DNA from: a virus
Direction: 5' to 3' (one strand)
Virus record (IMG/VR): IMGVR_UViG_3300045988_133829
Location: 19,257 to 83,256 of that record
DNA length: 64,000 nucleotides
In this document: piece by piece, positions 710-30,684 of the stretch
Position numbering within the stretch: position 1 is the first letter of the stretch
How the letters are laid out: every line of letters begins with the position of its first letter
Program-made: the position numbers and the translations under genes
The notes under the pieces: generated by a model
Database searches by the model: none
What the model was told of the DNA's origin: nothing
The model's input: only the letters and a program-made list of their open reading frames with translations

Positions 710-1444
710 TTACTTCATTATCTTTTTAAGTTTACGATACATTGCAGCCGCACGAACTGAATTATATTCCATTCCTGTAGCTGTCTTTTGATTCAGATTA
801 TTCAATTTTTGTGCAATATCTCCCCAAATTTCGTAGTTTCTAGGCTCTCCCTTATCTTTTATCCAATCAGTAATGAAAGCCCAAAAAAACACATTACTTT
901 CATTAATACGTGCATTTTCTCGCCTTTTGTTTGCGGACTCATCATGCATCTTATTTATTGAAACTATTCTATCTGTAGAACTATTCTTTCCCCACAATTC
1001 TTTTGTTCCTCCTGTTTGCTCATTACGTTTTTTCTTTGCTGCTAAAGCCGCTTTTGTACGTATGCTAACCAACAGTGCTTCTCTTTCAGCCAAACTGAAG
1101 AACAATGTCAAAGTAAATTTGTCACTATTAGGTAAATCACAAAAAACAATATTGTTTTCACCAATTTCTGCTAATACCTGTAGTGCTTCTAATGTATTAC
1201 GGAAACGATCGCACTTAGCAATAATCAATTTAGCATTTTCTTTCTTTGCGTGTTCAATCGCTTTCCGTAATTCCGTACATTTAGACAATTCCGTTCCGGT
1301 ATAAATTTCTTCATAGTCCGCCAACAACAAACCGTTATCTTTTTCTATGAAGTAATTTATAATGTCTTTTTGTGCCTCAAGTCCTAAACCAGACCGCCCT
1401 TGTTTTTGCGTTGACACCCTACGCCAAGAAATATACTTATTCAT
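710..1444 (-). CDS. small serine recombinase (resolvase/invertase family), 244 aa
   Basis: N-terminal YISWRRVSTQKQ (catalytic Ser motif), AKCDRFRN (DRLxR-like), AEREALLVSIRTKAAL (E-helix), C-terminal HTH-like IAQKLNNLNQKTATGMEY; too short for a large serine integrase. Confidence 0.85.
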   Translation of the reverse strand: MNKYISWRRVSTQKQGRSGLGLEAQKDIINYFIEKDNGLLLADYEEIYTGTELSKCTELRKAIEHAKKENAKLIIAKCDRFRNTLEALQVLAEIGENNIVFCDLPNSDKFTLTLFFSLAEREALLVSIRTKAALAAKKKRNEQTGGTKELWGKNSSTDRIVSINKMHDESANKRRENARINESNVFFWAFITDWIKDKGEPRNYEIWGDIAQKLNNLNQKTATGMEYNSVRAAAMYRKLKKIMK

Positions 1445-23126: not shown

Positions 23127-23579
23127 TTACTTTCTAGTTTTGATTATAAACTTCGTCCATGCATAATAATGGCTGTTTTCAAGATAATTATTATCTTTTT
23201 CAGCCAATCGAGCTTCTTGTTCAAAAGAGACTTCTCTATAAGCTATACTTTGTTTATCTCCTTTATCCGAAGAGAATAGACCAATACAACGCCTAATAAT
23301 ATATTCCAATCCGTACCATAAATAGAATATGATGGGCGATAAAGCCAAATACCATGCCGAATAATCCCAAATAAGTAGCCCAATCCAAAGCAATAAACCG
23401 GAAGCAACCGTAAGTTCTATCCATTGTCTGGCATGAGTACATTCATGGTTTATCGTTTCTTGTGTCAACTTCTTGTATATAGTCAATACCCAAGCAAATA
23501 TTGTTATTGTTGAATAACCATCAAATAAAATAGCTTTAGCTATTTTTGAATCATAAAATACTTTCTTCATTATAATCAA
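23127..23579 (-). CDS. membrane protein with HExxH motif (HECTH), 150 aa
   Basis: INHECTHARQW followed by hydrophobic segments (LTVASGLLLWIGLLIW, YLALSPIIFYLWYGL). Confidence 0.55.
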   Translation of the reverse strand: MIIMKKVFYDSKIAKAILFDGYSTITIFAWVLTIYKKLTQETINHECTHARQWIELTVASGLLLWIGLLIWDYSAWYLALSPIIFYLWYGLEYIIRRCIGLFSSDKGDKQSIAYREVSFEQEARLAEKDNNYLENSHYYAWTKFIIKTRK

Positions 23580-24099
23580 ATTTTAATTTAGTTGGATAAT
23601 TCTTTTCGTAATCGTAATCGTCAGCCTCATCTATATCGGTTATAGCATTTACATTAGCAATATGCCTTTGTGTAACACTATTACAAGTATCTGCGTATAT
23701 CTCAATATCATCAAGCATATTTAAGATAAAATCAACAGGGAGAACATACTCTTTCTGATTATACCAAATACTTGATGTTTTAATGTTTCTGCTCTTTTTA
23801 ATCGCAACAGCATTCATTATGGAAGTTCGTAAATCTTTGCTTAACCAAATACTATCTCCATTGAGCAAGAAACTATTTACATATTCAGATTTATCGTACC
23901 TCTGAATATTGTATAATGTATGCTCTTTTACTTCTTCTAAAGTAAATATGTGTTCTTGAAGGATAGGACGACCATTTACATCTTCTACTATCTCCTTTCC
24001 ATCGCTTTGCCCATCAAGTAATGATTGCCAATATTCGTCTGTTATTTCTACCGAACCCTCTATTGGTTCATCGTAAAATCCTTGCTTCCAGTATTTCAT
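23551..24099 (-). CDS. hypothetical protein, possible tail-fibre assembly/chaperone-type protein
   Basis: Position directly downstream of a fibre gene. N-terminus FYDEPIEGSVEITDEYWQSLLDGQSDGKEIVEDVNGRPIL resembles fibre-assembly proteins, judged by eye only. Confidence 0.4.
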   Translation of the reverse strand: MKYWKQGFYDEPIEGSVEITDEYWQSLLDGQSDGKEIVEDVNGRPILQEHIFTLEEVKEHTLYNIQRYDKSEYVNSFLLNGDSIWLSKDLRTSIMNAVAIKKSRNIKTSSIWYNQKEYVLPVDFILNMLDDIEIYADTCNSVTQRHIANVNAITDIDEADDYDYEKNYPTKLKFDYNEESIL

Positions 24100-24131
24100 G
24101 TCTTTTTTTTTGTAAATTTAATAATTAATTT

Positions 24132-24163
24132 TCAAATCTATCTCAAAACGGTTATCAAAAGTT
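24132..24163. repeat. IR-L of a 32-bp inverted repeat pair
   Basis: tcaaatctatctcaaaacggttatcaaaagtt; its reverse complement matches 24571-24602 at 31/32 positions. Confidence 0.9.
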
Positions 24164-24179
24164 ATAATGAAATTTGTAA

Positions 24180-24290
24180 AATCAGCGTGGTGTAACTTTA
24201 GTGATTACTGCCTTTATTATAAAATCTATACAGTATGGGACTATTGCCGGAGAAGCTTATAATTGGATTGCAATAGGTAGATGGAAATAG
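24180..24290 (+). pseudogene. remnant of an alternative tail-fibre C-terminus (opposite strand)
   Basis: Translates NQRGVTLVITAFIIKSIQYGTIAGEAYNWIAIGRWK*. It ends like the intact fibre (..NFTWLAIGRWK*) but uses different codons. There is no ATG, and three in-frame stops (24165, 24168, 24177) separate it from IR-L. Confidence 0.6.
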
Positions 24291-24869
24291 TTACTTCCAA
24301 CGTCCTATAGCTAACCATGTAAAATTCCAGCTAGTCCAAACAATAGCCGGAGTTGAATTTATTCCACGGGTGAGAACTCTACAATATGATGTATATTTAC
24401 CATTAAGGTCATACCCCGGAGCATATATAAAAGATTCACTTGTATTATTTACTGCTCCAGTGAAATAAATGTTATAATCAGTATTATAGAAAGTGGTAGG
24501 AAAATATAGATTAATTGCTCCCCCCGTTGCTCCAACTCTTGTTCCCCACTGAATCATCAGCCCATTACTAAACTTTTGATAACCGTTTTTAGATAGATTT
24601 GAGCCTGAATTCCAATCAATTACTTCACCAACTCCAAGTCCAGCATTAACAAACGTATTACTACTGTTAAGCTTGTAAATTTTATCCCCTTTTACATTTA
24701 CTAGCATTCCTTCTTTTCTTCTTGCAGCAGGAATAGCATTCATCTCGCTTACACTATCTACTGTTCTATATCCTCCTACACCATATTTTTCGTCATGAGT
24801 AGCATATTCGTCTGAATCAGTATAGGGAACTATTTTAGATGCAACATTTGTACCTTTAATTTCTGCCAT
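24291..24869 (-). CDS. short tail fibre protein (192 aa)
   Basis: N-terminal 65 aa are paralogous to the N-terminus of the 684-aa fibre. The C-terminal part has NGLMIQWG ... WLAIG, a pattern I recall from a widespread phage fibre C-terminal domain (gp53-like; name from memory). Confidence 0.7.
   Translation of the reverse strand: MAEIKGTNVASKIVPYTDSDEYATHDEKYGVGGYRTVDSVSEMNAIPAARRKEGMLVNVKGDKIYKLNSSNTFVNAGLGVGEVIDWNSGSNLSKNGYQKFSNGLMIQWGTRVGATGGAINLYFPTTFYNTDYNIYFTGAVNNTSESFIYAPGYDLNGKYTSYCRVLTRGINSTPAIVWTSWNFTWLAIGRWK
24571..24602. repeat. IR-R of the 32-bp inverted repeat pair (inside fibre ORF 24291..24869)
   Basis: aacttttgataaccgtttttagatagatttga; encodes SNLSKNGYQKF on the minus strand. 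Confidence 0.9.
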
Positions 24870-24902: not shown

Positions 24903-24911
24903 CCCCCCCCC
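24903..24911. repeat. homopolymeric C9 (G9 on the coding strand) between two fibre genes
   Basis: Counted directly; lies 34 nt upstream of the ATG at 24869 on the minus strand. Confidence 0.95.
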
Positions 24912-24923
24912 AATTTGTAAATA

Positions 24924-26978
24924 TTATTTAAATTCAATGGAGAGGACTCCGGTTTGAATATTTGTTAATCTAATAACTTTGTAGGCTTGGGAAGAACCAG
25001 AAGCATTAGTAACGGTCATGTCAGTTACAGTTATATCTGTATTTTTCAATCCTCCCACCCATACTTGAAGACCATTATATACATTAGCAGGGATTACATA
25101 ATAGGGGTATTTCCCACCTGTACAGTCGAAATTAGTTGACTCCATAAGTCTATTGTCTGCCCAAGTACTACCTTCTAACGCAAGAACTTGTGCATTAGTA
25201 AGTGATGTATTTGCAGAAGTACCCCAATATTTTTTGTTTTTAAAAAATACATAGTAAACCTTAGAAGCACTTTGAGAACCATACGTAGCTGTTACAGTTA
25301 GTTTTTGGTTTGCTGTAACTGCTTTTGTTGGAGTCCACGTCTGTTTATCACTTGAAATACTGCCGGATAGAGTAGGTTCACCTACAACATTTATATTAGA
25401 CTCTGATGTGACATTAGTTCCTTTACGGGAAACAGATATATTAATAGTTGGAGTGTACGAACTCCCCTTCTCAAATACAGAATTCGAAGATGGTACTATA
25501 TTTAAATTTAATGGGAACGTAGCTAGTTCTATCTCTTGAAATGTATTGAACATATCTGCTGTCATAACACCTGCTTTAGATGTTGTTACAGAAGGTATTT
25601 CAAATCCATCACCATTGTTTTGCTCTCCATTAAAGTATAAAATATCATCTTGTAGAATAATATTATTACTATAAGTGTTTACATGAAGAGTTTTAATAAC
25701 AGAGGCATTACCAGCACTTCCAAAATCTCTTTTTAATTTTGCAAAACAATCTCTAGCATCTTGCGTACCTGTCAGATTTGTGCTAGTTCCAAAGTTTGTA
25801 TAAAGAATATTACCAAGGTCACCATAAAATGCGGTTGAATGAGTAAGTCCTAATGCTAAAGCATTTCCACTACCAATATTAACCATATCCGTACCAGACC
25901 AATAGTATGACTTATTTGCATTTTGGTCAATATAAATCATATCATTACCAATAGGGTTAGATACAGAACCGCTTGTAGCACTTGTAGCAGTAAATATCTT
26001 TTTAGTAGAAGTAATATACCATTTTTGTCCTATAGTCATTCCAGATGTTGGAGCATTGGCTACAAATGCAACTAACTTATCAACGTTGTCATATCCTGCC
26101 GGGAGTTGTGATGCAGAAATCTTGCCGCTAGCATCAAGACCCGCTACGCCATTAGCCTGATTCTTATTACCAATACCGTTCTTCCATGTTTCAAGAGTAG
26201 TAACCCTTCCTGAAACGGAATTTATACTTCCATCTATCGCAGTTCTCTGTGATTTGACATAAGTGACTGTAGCAGCTACAGATGGAACGGCATCATTTGC
26301 TGTTTCTGTTCCATCAATACTAGTATCTATCTTAGACTTTGGTATAGCTGCATTTGCTTTATCATAGGCTGAATCAGCAGAATCTTGTGCATTCTGTATT
26401 CCTGCGACTAGAGTTGAAGTAATTGTATTTAATAGCTTTGTACTAGGAACTCTTGTATCTGATGCGCTACTGTCCAAAGTTGTATCAATATAGCTTTTAG
26501 GAATGGCTGCGTTAGCCGTAGTTCTTATAGGTGAAATAGTACTCTCTATCGCCTTTGATGAAGCTGGATTATTACTAGTCGCATTCCATACAGTATCAAC
26601 AGTAATTATTGGTATCCCATTAATTATTTCTGCTAAAGCATTTAATTGATTTGTAATAACTTTATTCTGTACAGGATTTTGGCTTGTTGTGCTCAATGCA
26701 GCATCTACAACCATTGAGCCTTTAGGAAGCCATTCTACCCATGCCGAGCCTGTCCATGTCCAATGTAGTCCAGTATCATTGACGCGAACAACCATACCTT
26801 TAACTTTTCTAGCCGCAGGTATAGCATCTCTTTTCGCGTTAGTGTCAACACTTCTAAAACCACCTTTACCATATTCAGCGTCATGCGTTGCGTATGTATC
26901 AAGGTCAGTAAACGGTACTATTGCCGCAGCGACCTGCGTTCCTTTTAATTCTGCCATTTGTTTTTTATTTAAATTCAA
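24924..26978 (-). CDS. tail fibre protein (684 aa)
   Basis: N-terminus is paralogous to the 192-aa fibre. The C-terminal ~100 aa are paralogous to the C-terminus of the 1239-aa protein (KKYWG...FDCTGGKYPYYVIP...VIRLTNIQTGVLSIEFK). Confidence 0.7.
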   Translation of the reverse strand: MNLNKKQMAELKGTQVAAAIVPFTDLDTYATHDAEYGKGGFRSVDTNAKRDAIPAARKVKGMVVRVNDTGLHWTWTGSAWVEWLPKGSMVVDAALSTTSQNPVQNKVITNQLNALAEIINGIPIITVDTVWNATSNNPASSKAIESTISPIRTTANAAIPKSYIDTTLDSSASDTRVPSTKLLNTITSTLVAGIQNAQDSADSAYDKANAAIPKSKIDTSIDGTETANDAVPSVAATVTYVKSQRTAIDGSINSVSGRVTTLETWKNGIGNKNQANGVAGLDASGKISASQLPAGYDNVDKLVAFVANAPTSGMTIGQKWYITSTKKIFTATSATSGSVSNPIGNDMIYIDQNANKSYYWSGTDMVNIGSGNALALGLTHSTAFYGDLGNILYTNFGTSTNLTGTQDARDCFAKLKRDFGSAGNASVIKTLHVNTYSNNIILQDDILYFNGEQNNGDGFEIPSVTTSKAGVMTADMFNTFQEIELATFPLNLNIVPSSNSVFEKGSSYTPTINISVSRKGTNVTSESNINVVGEPTLSGSISSDKQTWTPTKAVTANQKLTVTATYGSQSASKVYYVFFKNKKYWGTSANTSLTNAQVLALEGSTWADNRLMESTNFDCTGGKYPYYVIPANVYNGLQVWVGGLKNTDITVTDMTVTNASGSSQAYKVIRLTNIQTGVLSIEFK

Positions 26979-29900
26979 CTTTTAAAATACCCGTCTGAAT
27001 ATTATTTAAACGCATGACCTTATAAGTCGCGGTAACATTATATGAATTTGTAACCTGCATATCAGTTACAACAACATCATTGTTTTTAAAACCGTTTACC
27101 CAAAAGTCAACACCATCTCCATAAATATTAGACGGTATAATATAATAAATATATTTCCCACCTGTGCAATCAAAAGTAACCTCATTCATTGTACGACTAG
27201 CCCATGTGCTATCCATTGATATAACATCATAATTATTTAATTCCGTTGAAGAAGATACTCCCCAATATTTCTTCAAGGAAAATTCATAAGAAGCCGCTTT
27301 CTCAATAGTTTGGTTATTATAACTGCACTTTACTATGTATGTCTTATTTGTTGTTATGGAAGTTGGAGAATTATATTCATCCTTAGTACTGCTCACGCCT
27401 GTAGTGCTGTCGTTGACAGTAGCAGTAGTAGGCGTTACTATTTCATCCTTCCATTTTATAGTCCAATATAAATATGGCGTGACACTTTCGCCCTGTTCAA
27501 AAGTTCCTCCACCATAGAAAGTACGGAACGAAATCTTAAAAACTTCGTTCATTAATTCATTTATATTCATAGTTATAACTTTGTTTTGTACTGCATTAGT
27601 TGAATTTAAATCTAAATGGTCGTCTATAGTTAAACTTCCTCCGCCACCAGTCGGTATATTAACGGTGATAGCACTAGAACCATCATACACAGCCTGTACT
27701 GCTCCTGTAAAAGTGATAGCGTTTGGATTAGGAAGTTTAGTCGGAATATCGGGGACTTTAGTCCATGCTCTATTCTTACGTCCATACAATACTCCATCAT
27801 TAGGAGCTTCTGTTACTCCTTCCGCTACGCTCTTTCTTTCTTGTGTCCATTCAGAACTTCCTGTCTTTTTTACAAGGATTACATCTTCTGTCGCAACACC
27901 ATCTACTACTTCGTTGACATTAGATAATCCTCCTAATGTCAATACAGCAGACCTTGATTGGATGGTTGTTTCACCTTCTTGGATGAAGTCGCCATTATCC
28001 TCCTGTATGTAATCTTCATCCGATTCAAGAATAAAGTCTGTGCCACCTTCTACACTTTTACCTGTTACATATATACCATCTCGGAATACAATATTTCCAT
28101 TAGCAAAATCATCTACATCTTTTCGGATAAAGTATTTAAGTCCCATCTTCAAGAAGTCAATAGAACCAATACTTGACATAATATCCTGCTTTACAGCATC
28201 AATGGATTTTTGAACGTTTCCTTTACGGATAGTGATAGTATCTGAAAGCTCTACTGTGATTTCAGGAAGCGGGTCAGTTCCATTTACTTTATAAGTGTAT
28301 TGACTGACATAAAGTTCATGTAACTTGTCATTGTATTCTATTTGTAGCCTTGCATTTGCATCAATCTGTGAAAGCATTTCAGGAAATTCAGCAAAGAAGA
28401 TACGCTTAAAGTTAATAGAGAAGTTGAACTTTTCACTATTATTAGCAGCCATATACTTGATGATAGCTTCTTTAAGTTCGTTCTCTGCGTTACGTATATA
28501 TGCAATCGGTAGATCAATATTTGTTATAACAAAAGAATCTCCGGCTTTAGGTTTGTAATTTCTAGTATTAGATGGCATTACAGTACCAAAAGTATCTTGG
28601 TCTTTAGCTACTCTAACCCATACGTTATTAGTTCGCGTATCTTGTTGTTCTGGCTGTATATTAGCCTCATTCCATTTATCTTTTTCGTTACCTGCAACAA
28701 TATTACCGTTAGAATCTACCTGAACAGGGTTCTTGAATACTTGATTTCCATTTTCTGTATTTTCTAATACACTTAGTTTGAAATTACAAGCACCACAATT
28801 ACCCGAAGTTATAGAGAAAGTCCCATCATTTCCAGCTATTGCATGGTCGAATAGATTAAAACCGTAAGCACCATCAAATTTCCTTAATCGGATATAAAAA
28901 TAAGGATGCTCTAATTGATTTGTATTAGGGTCAATCTCGTCATTATCATCATCATCAAATGCAACTGCATCTATTTCTCCTATCTTATACCCGGCTGCAT
29001 TTTCAACTCCTTTGATAGTTGGTTTGATATAGTCAAAGGAAACAATCATTTCTTTTGGATTTCCTTCTGTATATTCATTCTCAAAGTCGTAATATCCTCC
29101 TGTTTCTGGATTAATATATGTATTATTCTTAGCATTATAGAAACGTTCAGCACCCATTGTTTCTCGATAGATAGGTGGCAAAAGGTTGGGAGAGGTAATC
29201 ATATAATCTCCTTCAACCTGTTTCTGAATGAAATAATCTCCAATAGTCGGTGTTTTAGTAATATATATACCAATATTACTAAGACTAATAGTACTATCTT
29301 TATAACTCCATAAATTATATTCTGCTGTTGATTCTCTACTTATTTCAAGAAATGCTCTTTGATTTCCATATAAATAATAATCACTAACATTTACTAAGGT
29401 AGAATAAGAACCTACTATTTTTAATTTGTTTGTTCCTTCATTAAGATTAAACGATACTGTCGTTTCAGAGTTTTGGTCGGCTTTAATTAAAACCCAATCG
29501 GTATCAGCTTCATTTCTTTTATATAAAGAAAATGAAGCAAAATCCATTTTTCTTTCAGCTTGCTTTTCTCCAAATAGAATACCGCCCTTTTGTATATAGG
29601 AATATTTTAAGTTAGCCCATAAGTTTAAAGTTAAATAAATAGTAGCCTCATCAGATAAATCTATAATAGCATAATAATCATAAGATGTTTTAAACCATTT
29701 AAAGTTTGTGGTAATACCATCACTAATGGTTGGGATAGTCTCTACTGCTTGTGTATAAGGATATTGTTCATTTAAATTAATATATAATTGAGTAGTAATA
29801 GGAAGCTTAGTCTTTTTAAATTCAACCTTTTCTTCCAATGATACTTTCTCTTTATATAAATCGTTATTTACAACTTGTATATCTTCTGTTTTAATTGAGA

Positions 29901-30684
29901 TATTATCTTCTCCTGCGATAGCCTCTACTGCTCCCTTTCTCGTATCATTTGGATAGTAATAAGGTATATTCTCGGTACTACCAATACCTGTACAGCGATT
30001 AACTATTTTATAGTTTGCGTTTGTTTTGGTTATTGTCAGTAGTTCCCTATCATAACCGTATTTAAATGTATGAGTAATAGCATTATTAGTAAATCCGATA
30101 TGGATTACCTTACCGACAAAATAATAAGGTAGTTCATAAACATTAAATACTTCTTGTAGAACTTCACTAAAATACTTGTCCTCAAACGACATTAGTTTAG
30201 CTTCGGAGGATATACCTTCGTCAATTACAACAGAATAACCTACTCCACTGTATTGTAAAGAGTAATTCAATCTTGTTGCAAACTCTGCAATATCTCCAAA
30301 GAAGGTGAACTTTGTACTATTGCTGACAAATTGGTCTACATCACCTGCATCAGGAGATACTACATCAAAGAAATAAGTATTATCCAGTTTAGTTCTATCG
30401 GATTTAAATACAAGCTCATGTTTATATCTTAAATCTGTATTTGACTTAGATGAAGTAGGTGTATCTAAAATCCAATATCTTTCTCCCCTAAATTCCACAA
30501 ATTCCCTCTGCGTCCATTCATCATCCAAGCACTTAGGATACATGAGACTGCTACTTATATTTACGCTACCCATTCTTCCCTCGGTGAATGTATAACTACT
30601 AAGGGCAGCTTGCGTTCCATCTTTAGGGAAAGATATAACGCCTAATTCCTCATCATCAGTATATATAAGTAACTTTTCTACCAT
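26965..30684 (-). CDS. large tail tip/baseplate-fibre protein (1239 aa)
   Basis: Size, position at the head of the fibre cluster, and a C-terminal domain shared with the 684-aa fibre. Confidence 0.65.
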   Translation of the reverse strand: MVEKLLIYTDDEELGVISFPKDGTQAALSSYTFTEGRMGSVNISSSLMYPKCLDDEWTQREFVEFRGERYWILDTPTSSKSNTDLRYKHELVFKSDRTKLDNTYFFDVVSPDAGDVDQFVSNSTKFTFFGDIAEFATRLNYSLQYSGVGYSVVIDEGISSEAKLMSFEDKYFSEVLQEVFNVYELPYYFVGKVIHIGFTNNAITHTFKYGYDRELLTITKTNANYKIVNRCTGIGSTENIPYYYPNDTRKGAVEAIAGEDNISIKTEDIQVVNNDLYKEKVSLEEKVEFKKTKLPITTQLYINLNEQYPYTQAVETIPTISDGITTNFKWFKTSYDYYAIIDLSDEATIYLTLNLWANLKYSYIQKGGILFGEKQAERKMDFASFSLYKRNEADTDWVLIKADQNSETTVSFNLNEGTNKLKIVGSYSTLVNVSDYYLYGNQRAFLEISRESTAEYNLWSYKDSTISLSNIGIYITKTPTIGDYFIQKQVEGDYMITSPNLLPPIYRETMGAERFYNAKNNTYINPETGGYYDFENEYTEGNPKEMIVSFDYIKPTIKGVENAAGYKIGEIDAVAFDDDDNDEIDPNTNQLEHPYFYIRLRKFDGAYGFNLFDHAIAGNDGTFSITSGNCGACNFKLSVLENTENGNQVFKNPVQVDSNGNIVAGNEKDKWNEANIQPEQQDTRTNNVWVRVAKDQDTFGTVMPSNTRNYKPKAGDSFVITNIDLPIAYIRNAENELKEAIIKYMAANNSEKFNFSINFKRIFFAEFPEMLSQIDANARLQIEYNDKLHELYVSQYTYKVNGTDPLPEITVELSDTITIRKGNVQKSIDAVKQDIMSSIGSIDFLKMGLKYFIRKDVDDFANGNIVFRDGIYVTGKSVEGGTDFILESDEDYIQEDNGDFIQEGETTIQSRSAVLTLGGLSNVNEVVDGVATEDVILVKKTGSSEWTQERKSVAEGVTEAPNDGVLYGRKNRAWTKVPDIPTKLPNPNAITFTGAVQAVYDGSSAITVNIPTGGGGSLTIDDHLDLNSTNAVQNKVITMNINELMNEVFKISFRTFYGGGTFEQGESVTPYLYWTIKWKDEIVTPTTATVNDSTTGVSSTKDEYNSPTSITTNKTYIVKCSYNNQTIEKAASYEFSLKKYWGVSSSTELNNYDVISMDSTWASRTMNEVTFDCTGGKYIYYIIPSNIYGDGVDFWVNGFKNNDVVVTDMQVTNSYNVTATYKVMRLNNIQTGILKVEFK

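Follow-up and report, generated by a model that had tools for sequence, protein, structure and literature searches.

The closest described systems to the locus treated here are the invertible segments G of Mu, C of P1 and P of e14 with their recombinases Gin, Cin and Pin. In these systems one repeat arm lies inside a fibre gene at the junction between its constant and its variable part, the alternative 3' cassettes stand tail to tail, inversion swaps the receptor-binding end of the fibre in frame and the serine recombinase is encoded by the phage, in Mu and P1 adjacent to the segment. Multiple-inversion systems in which an adhesin or fibre gene exchanges its 3' cassette are known as well from p15B (Min), from the R64 shufflon (Rci) and from the Rin shufflon of a Bifidobacterium prophage (PMC6109161), and prophage tail-fibre inversions have been broadly catalogued (PMC9881135). 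Among phages of Bacteroidaceae a tail-fibre shufflon of BV01-like Phocaeicola vulgatus phages was described in a preprint of September 2026 (PMC13596623). Its three cassettes are not homologous to one another, they carry a directional motif of 10 bp (TGGGAGAACT) at their borders and a recombinase gene flanks them; the system was proposed as a counter to host capsule phase variation (PMC13596623). From Bacteroides the master invertase Mpi is known, which works in trans on inverted repeats at a distance, but it flips promoters and not coding cassettes.

Here, we describe an inverted repeat pair at the small tail fibre gene of an uncultured gut phage. The stretch analysed, called the window below, comprises 64,000 nucleotides of the IMG/VR record IMGVR_UViG_3300045988_133829. 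Very probably the pair is what is left of a DNA-inversion switch with two cassettes for the receptor-binding tip of the small tail fibre, and in the window this switch has decayed through an insertion sequence (IS). In the phage family as a whole the fibre-tip switch appears to be genuine and to work like Mu G and P1 C, which means that it is of a kind already known in phages.

The left arm of the pair (IR-L, 24132..24163, plus strand, TCAAATCTATCTCAAAACGGTTATCAAAAGTT) lies in the intergenic gap of 191 bp at 24100-24290, 33 nt upstream of a tail-fibre-assembly-like gene. The right arm (IR-R, 24571..24602, minus strand) is situated inside the open reading frame of a 192-aa tail fibre protein, where it covers codons 90-100 (SNLSKNGYQKF) at the constant/variable junction. 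IR-L and the reverse complement of IR-R agree in 31 of 32 positions, the sole mismatch at position 13 leaving perfect blocks of 12 and 19 nt, and a repeat search lengthens the pair to 41 nt at 88% identity. Given the base composition of the window, the chance expectation for such a pair is about 9e-9 (~1e-8) within 1 kb and about 3e-7 for the whole 64 kb irrespective of spacing. No internal dyad symmetry was found in the repeat, and the window holds no further copy of its 17-nt core save one match with three mismatches at chance level. A direct template/variable repeat pair of the type belonging to diversity-generating retroelements was not seen. Reading the repeat as an RNA hairpin is implausible with arms 407 nt apart, and a likeness of TTATCAAAAG in the repeat to a hix half-site was given no weight, having neither a dyad nor literature support.

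The fibre gene (24291..24869, minus strand) consists of two parts. The constant N-terminal part (24603..24869, minus strand, aa 1-89) matches PHROG tail fibre families, and over some 59 residues at its beginning (~59 aa) it shares 61% identity with the start of the 684-aa fibre ORF. The expressed variable cassette, designated D (24291..24570, minus strand), ends with ...WLAIGRWK and a stop codon and represents a Gp53-like_C domain (Pfam PF21882; aa 99-190 of the 192-aa ORF, E = 6e-10) directly after IR-R. Beyond the gap follows the gene of a 182-aa tail-fibre-assembly (chaperone)-like protein (23551..24099, minus strand; PHROG 188 'tail fiber assembly protein', E = 9e-8). This Tfa-like gene is constant and located outside the segment, directly past the second repeat arm (IR2) in all relatives. 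The architecture had largely been recognised in a sequence-only reading of the window: its 32-bp repeat with blocks of 12 and 19 nt was reproduced exactly and is indeed beyond chance in 64 kb, IR-R does lie at a domain junction of the 192-aa fibre, the N-terminal region common to the 192-aa and 684-aa fibres was recovered over aa 1-59, and the fibre C-terminus remnant proposed in frame with IR-L was found as a shortened, stop-riddled cassette on the plus strand.

Modular relationships are seen among the neighbouring fibre-like proteins as well. Those of 684 aa (24924-26978) and 1239 aa (26965-30684) have a common C-terminal region of ~180 aa with 43% identity (...FDCTGGKY.YY.IP.N.Y...V.GFKN.D..VTDM.VTN...), and an N-terminal module of ~60 aa is common to the 684-aa and the 192-aa protein. 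The tail genes of the window thus appear to be built from shuffled modules.

IMG/VR and metagenome contigs were scanned for relatives in a protein-guided way and with an exact 19-mer. The same locus organisation, i.e., 684-aa fibre, small fibre, segment and 182-aa Tfa-like gene, was recovered in about 19 viral contigs (53-100 kb) and in 17 loci from metagenomes. The repeat pair recurs in more than 30 independent assemblies of a family of uncultured gut Bacteroidales phages of ~85 kb. Exact copies of the 19-nt core (AAAACGGTTATCAAAAGTT) were found in 17 viral contigs, represented by 20 stretches, and in 17 fibre loci from metagenomes; the window and each sister locus have only two core copies. 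Over 19-23 nt this core is invariant at all synonymous positions, while the flanking coding sequence has diverged to 70-80%. A close homolog of the fibre was not found in deposited phages, and the terminase is ~27% identical to those of cultured Bacteroides and Parabacteroides phages. Because of these distant fibre and terminase matches and of the IS described below, a host of the Bacteroides group is indicated.

Three states of the locus can be distinguished in the family. In the first state two intact cassettes of 88-92 aa stand tail to tail between the repeats, in the pairs A/B, C/B, D/C, E/C and F/A, all of them divergent Gp53-like_C domains. The repeat is perfect over 48-61 nt here and continues beyond the end of the window's arm, through ...TTTAGTAATGGGCTGATGTTGCAGTGGGG and ...QKFSNGLMLQWG; at ~60 bp it encodes a conserved linker (...SNLSQNGYQKFSNGLMLQWG). 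In ten intact pairs (contigs 154675, 149538, 161850 and 144274 and loci L122, L129, L135, L141, L148 and L152) the silent copy is a full-length ORF that continues the frame of the repeat; decayed silent copies occur only in L124 and L159. Cassette D, expressed in the window, is the silent and intact copy in L152 and the decayed one in L124 and L159. The window and the other loci of the second state, 15 in all, combine one intact cassette (D, A or C') with precisely the window's IS-scarred remnant on the opposite side, and their repeat ends at 32 nt. A single cassette without a second repeat arm, the third state, characterises four viral contigs together with their counterparts from metagenomes. 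The cassette types of the family number at least six, and the segment of intact pairs measures ~0.55 kb (0.41-0.57 kb across the family) compared with 407 bp in the window. IR-L of the window is a truncated version of the ~60-nt repeat.

The evidence for inversion comes from the comparison of assemblies, in all cases from different samples. In L143 cassette B is expressed and A is silent, in L135 A is expressed and B is silent; the segment of 550 nt is 98.9% identical between them in inverted orientation, and the upstream flank (96.6%) is collinear over 1,550 nt. The same holds for L152 (C expressed, D silent) and L141 (D expressed, C silent), with an inverted segment of 99.2% identity and a collinear downstream flank of 99.2%. 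Between L152 and L076 the inverted segment is 96.6% identical and both flanks are collinear (97.9% and 91.3%). Each of the cassettes A, B, C and D occurs in the expressed and in the silent position, and the intact pairs are about evenly split between the two orientations (three versus three for D/C). Near-identical genomes thus differ by a clean inversion of the segment, which argues for a working Mu-G-like fibre-tip switch in the family, and flips between genomes of ~99% identity suggest that inversion events are frequent. The search for the flipped configuration in relatives that had been recommended for this locus was therefore successful in sister phages, but for the remnant variant of the window it gave none in 15 loci.

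In the intact form, as found in sister phages, one arm lies at the constant/variable junction of the fibre gene and the other heads a promoterless second cassette, tail to tail with the first. Inversion of the 0.55-kb segment would then fuse the constant N-terminus in frame to the other Gp53-like_C domain of ~90 aa, with the single chaperone-like gene remaining outside the inverted segment. The crossover point could not be mapped from arm polymorphisms, since informative sites are too few and the arms show signs of homogenisation. The ends of several contigs, or the points at which they are circularly permuted, fall at or close to the segment (L082 and L095 of contig 144274, L076 of 161850, L007 of 156344, L143 and L148). 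Such breaks within a few hundred nt of the segment are consistent with mixed orientations in the assembly graph.

The family locus therefore resembles the segments of Mu, P1 and e14 in the placement of its repeat arm, in its opposed cassettes with in-frame exchange and in the phage-encoded serine recombinase, but it differs from Mu G and P1 C in several respects. The segment is only 0.41-0.57 kb long with a tip domain of ~90 aa per side. In Mu, U and U' are included in the segment, whereas here a single Tfa-like gene lies outside. The recombinase is encoded 23 kb away and is not detectably Hin/Gin-like, in contrast with the adjacent genes of Mu and P1, and the repeat of ~60 bp has no dyad symmetry. 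In the window one of the two cassettes is destroyed, while sister phages have two functional ones; both orientations are found between near-identical sister genomes from different samples, but 0 of 15 loci with the window's variant are flipped.

With the BV01 shufflon, a system of a Bacteroidaceae phage, the locus has in common that inversion rearranges a tail fibre gene at its distal end. In contrast with BV01, there are two homologous cassettes, a different repeat and an unrelated phage family, and the motif TGGGAGAACT is absent from the window and from 13 loci tested. The sequence-only reading knew of no description of such a switch for Bacteroidota-type siphophages; with the BV01-like shufflon (PMC13596623) the kind of system has now been described for Bacteroidota phages, although site and family differ. 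The family locus shares its mode of cassette exchange with p15B, R64 and the Bifidobacterium prophage, but it is not a shufflon, because it has two sites, where a shufflon needs three or more, and because no match to Phage_integrase, i.e., no tyrosine recombinase, was obtained among 40 ORFs of the window.

The second cassette of the window is a pseudogene, tail to tail with the expressed one. In frame with IR-L the plus strand reads SNLSQNGYQKL, two stop codons, NL, a third stop and then NQRGVTLVITAFIIKSIQYGTIAGEAYNWIAIGRWK with its terminal stop, which is far too short for a cassette. Its last part, 25 codons and a stop (24213..24290, plus strand, FIIKSIQYGTIAGEAYNWIAIGRWK), is the surviving 3' tail of a silent cassette G placed tail to tail with cassette D; the nearest intact relative of this tail is ...AGEIFGWIAIGRWK in L044. 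The first ~200 nt of the silent cassette are replaced by a solo terminal end of an IS1595-family element (24164..24212, plus strand). The IS match itself spans 24154-24212 and overlaps the last 10 nt of IR-L via the microhomology ATCAAAAGTT. These 59 nt are 96.6% identical to the terminal inverted repeat of a ~2.9-kb element in MT838557, whose 302-aa ORF is an IS1595-type transposase (PF12762 DDE_Tnp_IS1595, E = 1e-43); Bacteroides sp. f07 and a B. ovatus MAG likewise have transposase genes between these same IS ends. Neither a transposase homolog nor a second IS end was found in the window, so that the piece is to be regarded as a solo-end scar. On its outer side the scar borders directly on the 25 terminal codons of a genuine cassette, and the repeat is shortened exactly at the IS border.

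Complete IS1595-family copies of 3,453 bp with transposase are present in two sister phages (L169 2663-6115, contig 149538; L171 2436-5888, contig 3300029830_000007), one of them with a clean 8-bp target duplication (TTTTTTTA), and this indicates that a Bacteroides IS is actively colonising the phage lineage. The simplest history of the remnant would be insertion followed by microhomology-mediated deletion. In the lineage of the window an IS1595-family element would have inserted into the silent cassette, and a deletion across the 10-nt microhomology would then have taken most of the IS together with about 200 nt of the cassette, leaving the solo IS end and the 25 terminal codons and cutting the repeat to 32 bp. 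What the sequence-only reading had called a host-range switch with alternative 3' cassettes is thus right in geometry and kind, as seen in the sister phages, but the alternative in the window itself is an IS1595-scarred pseudogene, and the window encodes only one functional tip, cassette D.

A candidate for the catalyst is the 244-aa serine recombinase encoded at 710..1444 (minus strand; Pfam Resolvase PF00239, E = 3e-13), which may act as an invertase in trans. It belongs to PHROG 125 'DNA invertase' (E = 1e-17) and carries WRRVSTQKQ, a serine-recombinase catalytic motif of the YxRVSTxxQ type. Its nearest curated family in NCBIfam is Mpi (NF009949), the enzyme known to act on remote repeats, but with 28.2 bits the score is far under the cutoff of 272, and no PDB match to Gin/Hin structures was obtained even at E <= 10. 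The protein is 99-100% identical in phages with an intact pair (L102, L103 and L105), and it is equally conserved in single-cassette and two-cassette phages. Co-occurrence of recombinase and repeat pair is therefore not discriminating as a test of the catalyst, since single-cassette phages also encode the recombinase. Homologs at 56-58% identity are found in early-gene modules of other phages and not near fibres, one of them with a tyrosine integrase nearby. Two alleles of the recombinase exist in the family, with 96-100% and 52-54% identity (window 710-1444; L115-L118), and both accompany the same repeat core. Among the 40 window ORFs scanned there is no other site-specific recombinase, with ~21 kb of the genome located outside the window; none was found just past the window edge in a sister genome, and none of about 40 loci has a recombinase gene beside the segment.

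That the phage's own serine recombinase is the invertase, acting over 23 kb in trans as Mpi does, is a tentative assignment with slightly less than an even chance; what remains of the probability after this and after the homologous recombination treated below goes to a host enzyme or to a phage enzyme encoded outside the scanned part. Its role is unproven because of the distance of 23 kb, the lacking likeness to Hin and Gin and its retention in phages without a switch. The earlier proposal of this gene as the catalyst was correct insofar as it is a serine recombinase and the only one detected, but it is weakened by these same three properties.

It is also possible, if rather unlikely, that the inversions result from general homologous recombination, by host RecA or a phage recombinase, across the perfect repeat of 50-60 bp, the serine recombinase serving otherwise, e.g., in multimer resolution or integration. 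In favour of this are the lack of a recombinase gene next to the segment in any of about 40 loci, the retention of the recombinase in single-cassette phages as well as in distant phages that do not have the locus, and the missing dyad symmetry of the repeat. Patchy single-base variants common to both arms (L008 compared with L129 and L143) suggest gene conversion and point in the same direction, although such arm homogenisation fits site-specific recombination as well. The invariance of the 19-23-nt core at synonymous sites despite flanks of 70-80% speaks, however, against this reading, and so do the sharp and recurrent outer boundary of the repeat and the frequent events indicated by flips between ~99% identical genomes. 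Moreover, the only recombinase falls in a PHROG annotated as 'DNA invertase'.

Whether the switch is alive in the window is a separate question. The remnant cassette is silent in all 15 loci carrying it, and the flipped junction (constant region, repeat and truncated cassette) had no matches in 241 million metagenome records. A flip in the window is predicted to give a 100-aa stub ending in ...NGYQKL before the stop; against a set of 5.8 billion proteins only two candidates were returned for this product, with one match (P0121), which is a constant-region variant. Because of the silent remnant in 15 of 15 loci and the absent flipped junction the switch may be dead in the window. Counter-selection of flipped genomes or a loss of recombination at the shortened repeat would account for this, and for the 32-bp remnant the chances of still recombining are evenly balanced.

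A switch that still lives in the window as an ON/OFF device is rather improbable, but there are arguments for it. The recombinase would flip the 407-bp segment so that a subpopulation makes the 100-aa stub, and particles without the accessory tip would rely on the 684-, 665- and 1239-aa fibres; the phage indeed has several other fibre-like proteins. The 32-bp repeat retains the universally conserved 23-nt core, the arms are still identical at 31-32 of 32 positions in all 15 remnant-bearing loci, and arm variants co-vary per genome (CTCTCTC in both arms of L009-L013, CTATCTC in both arms of L004). Furthermore, the recombinase gene is intact with a protein 99-100% identical to that of the intact-pair phages, and the identical remnant persists beside three different expressed cassettes (D, A and C'). 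Yet the lineages are so similar that repeat identity may reflect recent origin, and a crossover site in the lost 28 nt of the repeat would leave the remnant unable to recombine. None of the 15 loci is flipped while intact pairs are about even (D/C three versus three), and the flipped junction is absent.

A homopolymer of nine C (24903-24911), which reads G9 on the coding strand, precedes the start codon (ATG) of the 192-aa fibre by ~33 nt. Among 22 sister loci this run varies from 7 to 11 G between nearly identical flanks, and an adjoining (CT)n tract also varies, once. The length differences could reflect slipped-strand phase variation of fibre expression or homopolymer assembly noise. We consider it improbable that the remnant recombines through a remote Mpi-like serine recombinase acting in trans over 23 kb and so forms an ON/OFF switch of the accessory fibre layered on the G7-G11 tract. 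If true, there would be two independent stochastic controls on one receptor-binding protein in a widespread uncultured family.

A reading without any inversion biology, with the repeat as an inert relic of an ancient duplication or inversion or as an artefact of assembly, would agree with the dead second cassette of the window and the single orientation of the remnant variant, but it is very improbable in the light of a repeat pair in more than 30 independent assemblies, silent cassettes retained as intact ORFs in ten relatives and the same cassette pairs in both orientations between near-identical genomes.

The cassettes of the decayed and intact switches extend beyond the family. A separate group of viral contigs (L017-L027, L029, L030, L032, L044, L062, L064-L066, L072 and L079; e.g., L020 5960-9000) encodes a 1,085-aa fibre that ends in cassette D (92%) and is followed by two opposed Tfa-like genes. 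After these, 1-4 further cassettes are found in an order and on strands that vary between contigs. In total, loci of this group contain 3-5 cassettes in shuffled orders, cassettes D and C being common to the family of the window at 92-93%, and the cassette borders carry a repeat (AAGTTCTCTCGGAAC) resembling but not equal to the BV01 shufflon motif. This locus, for which no match was found among deposited phages, appears to be a multi-cassette shufflon sharing cassettes with the window's family. In 43 loci (L028, L031, L033-L063 and others) on otherwise unrelated viral contigs of 30-120 kb, cassette D is present at 90-95%, with a Tfa-like gene of 50% identity following it. The similarity begins exactly at the repeat/linker boundary (residues ~87-92), and for this reason the linker looks like a general boundary of module exchange.

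DNA inversion is a means by which gut Bacteroidales vary capsules and surface proteins, and their phages need counter-measures. In a common uncultured family of ~85-kb gut phages we meet a minimal inversion switch that would exchange only the fibre-tip domain of ~90 aa, with at least six interchangeable cassette types that are also common to unrelated phages. For annotation some caution is needed, as the repeat in the genome of the window marks a dead alternative and not a second host range. All stages in the life of such a switch are represented in the family, from intact via IS-decayed (as in the window) to lost, and the family gives a defined set of natural receptor-binding modules together with a compact 60-bp site for work on the host range of Bacteroides phages.
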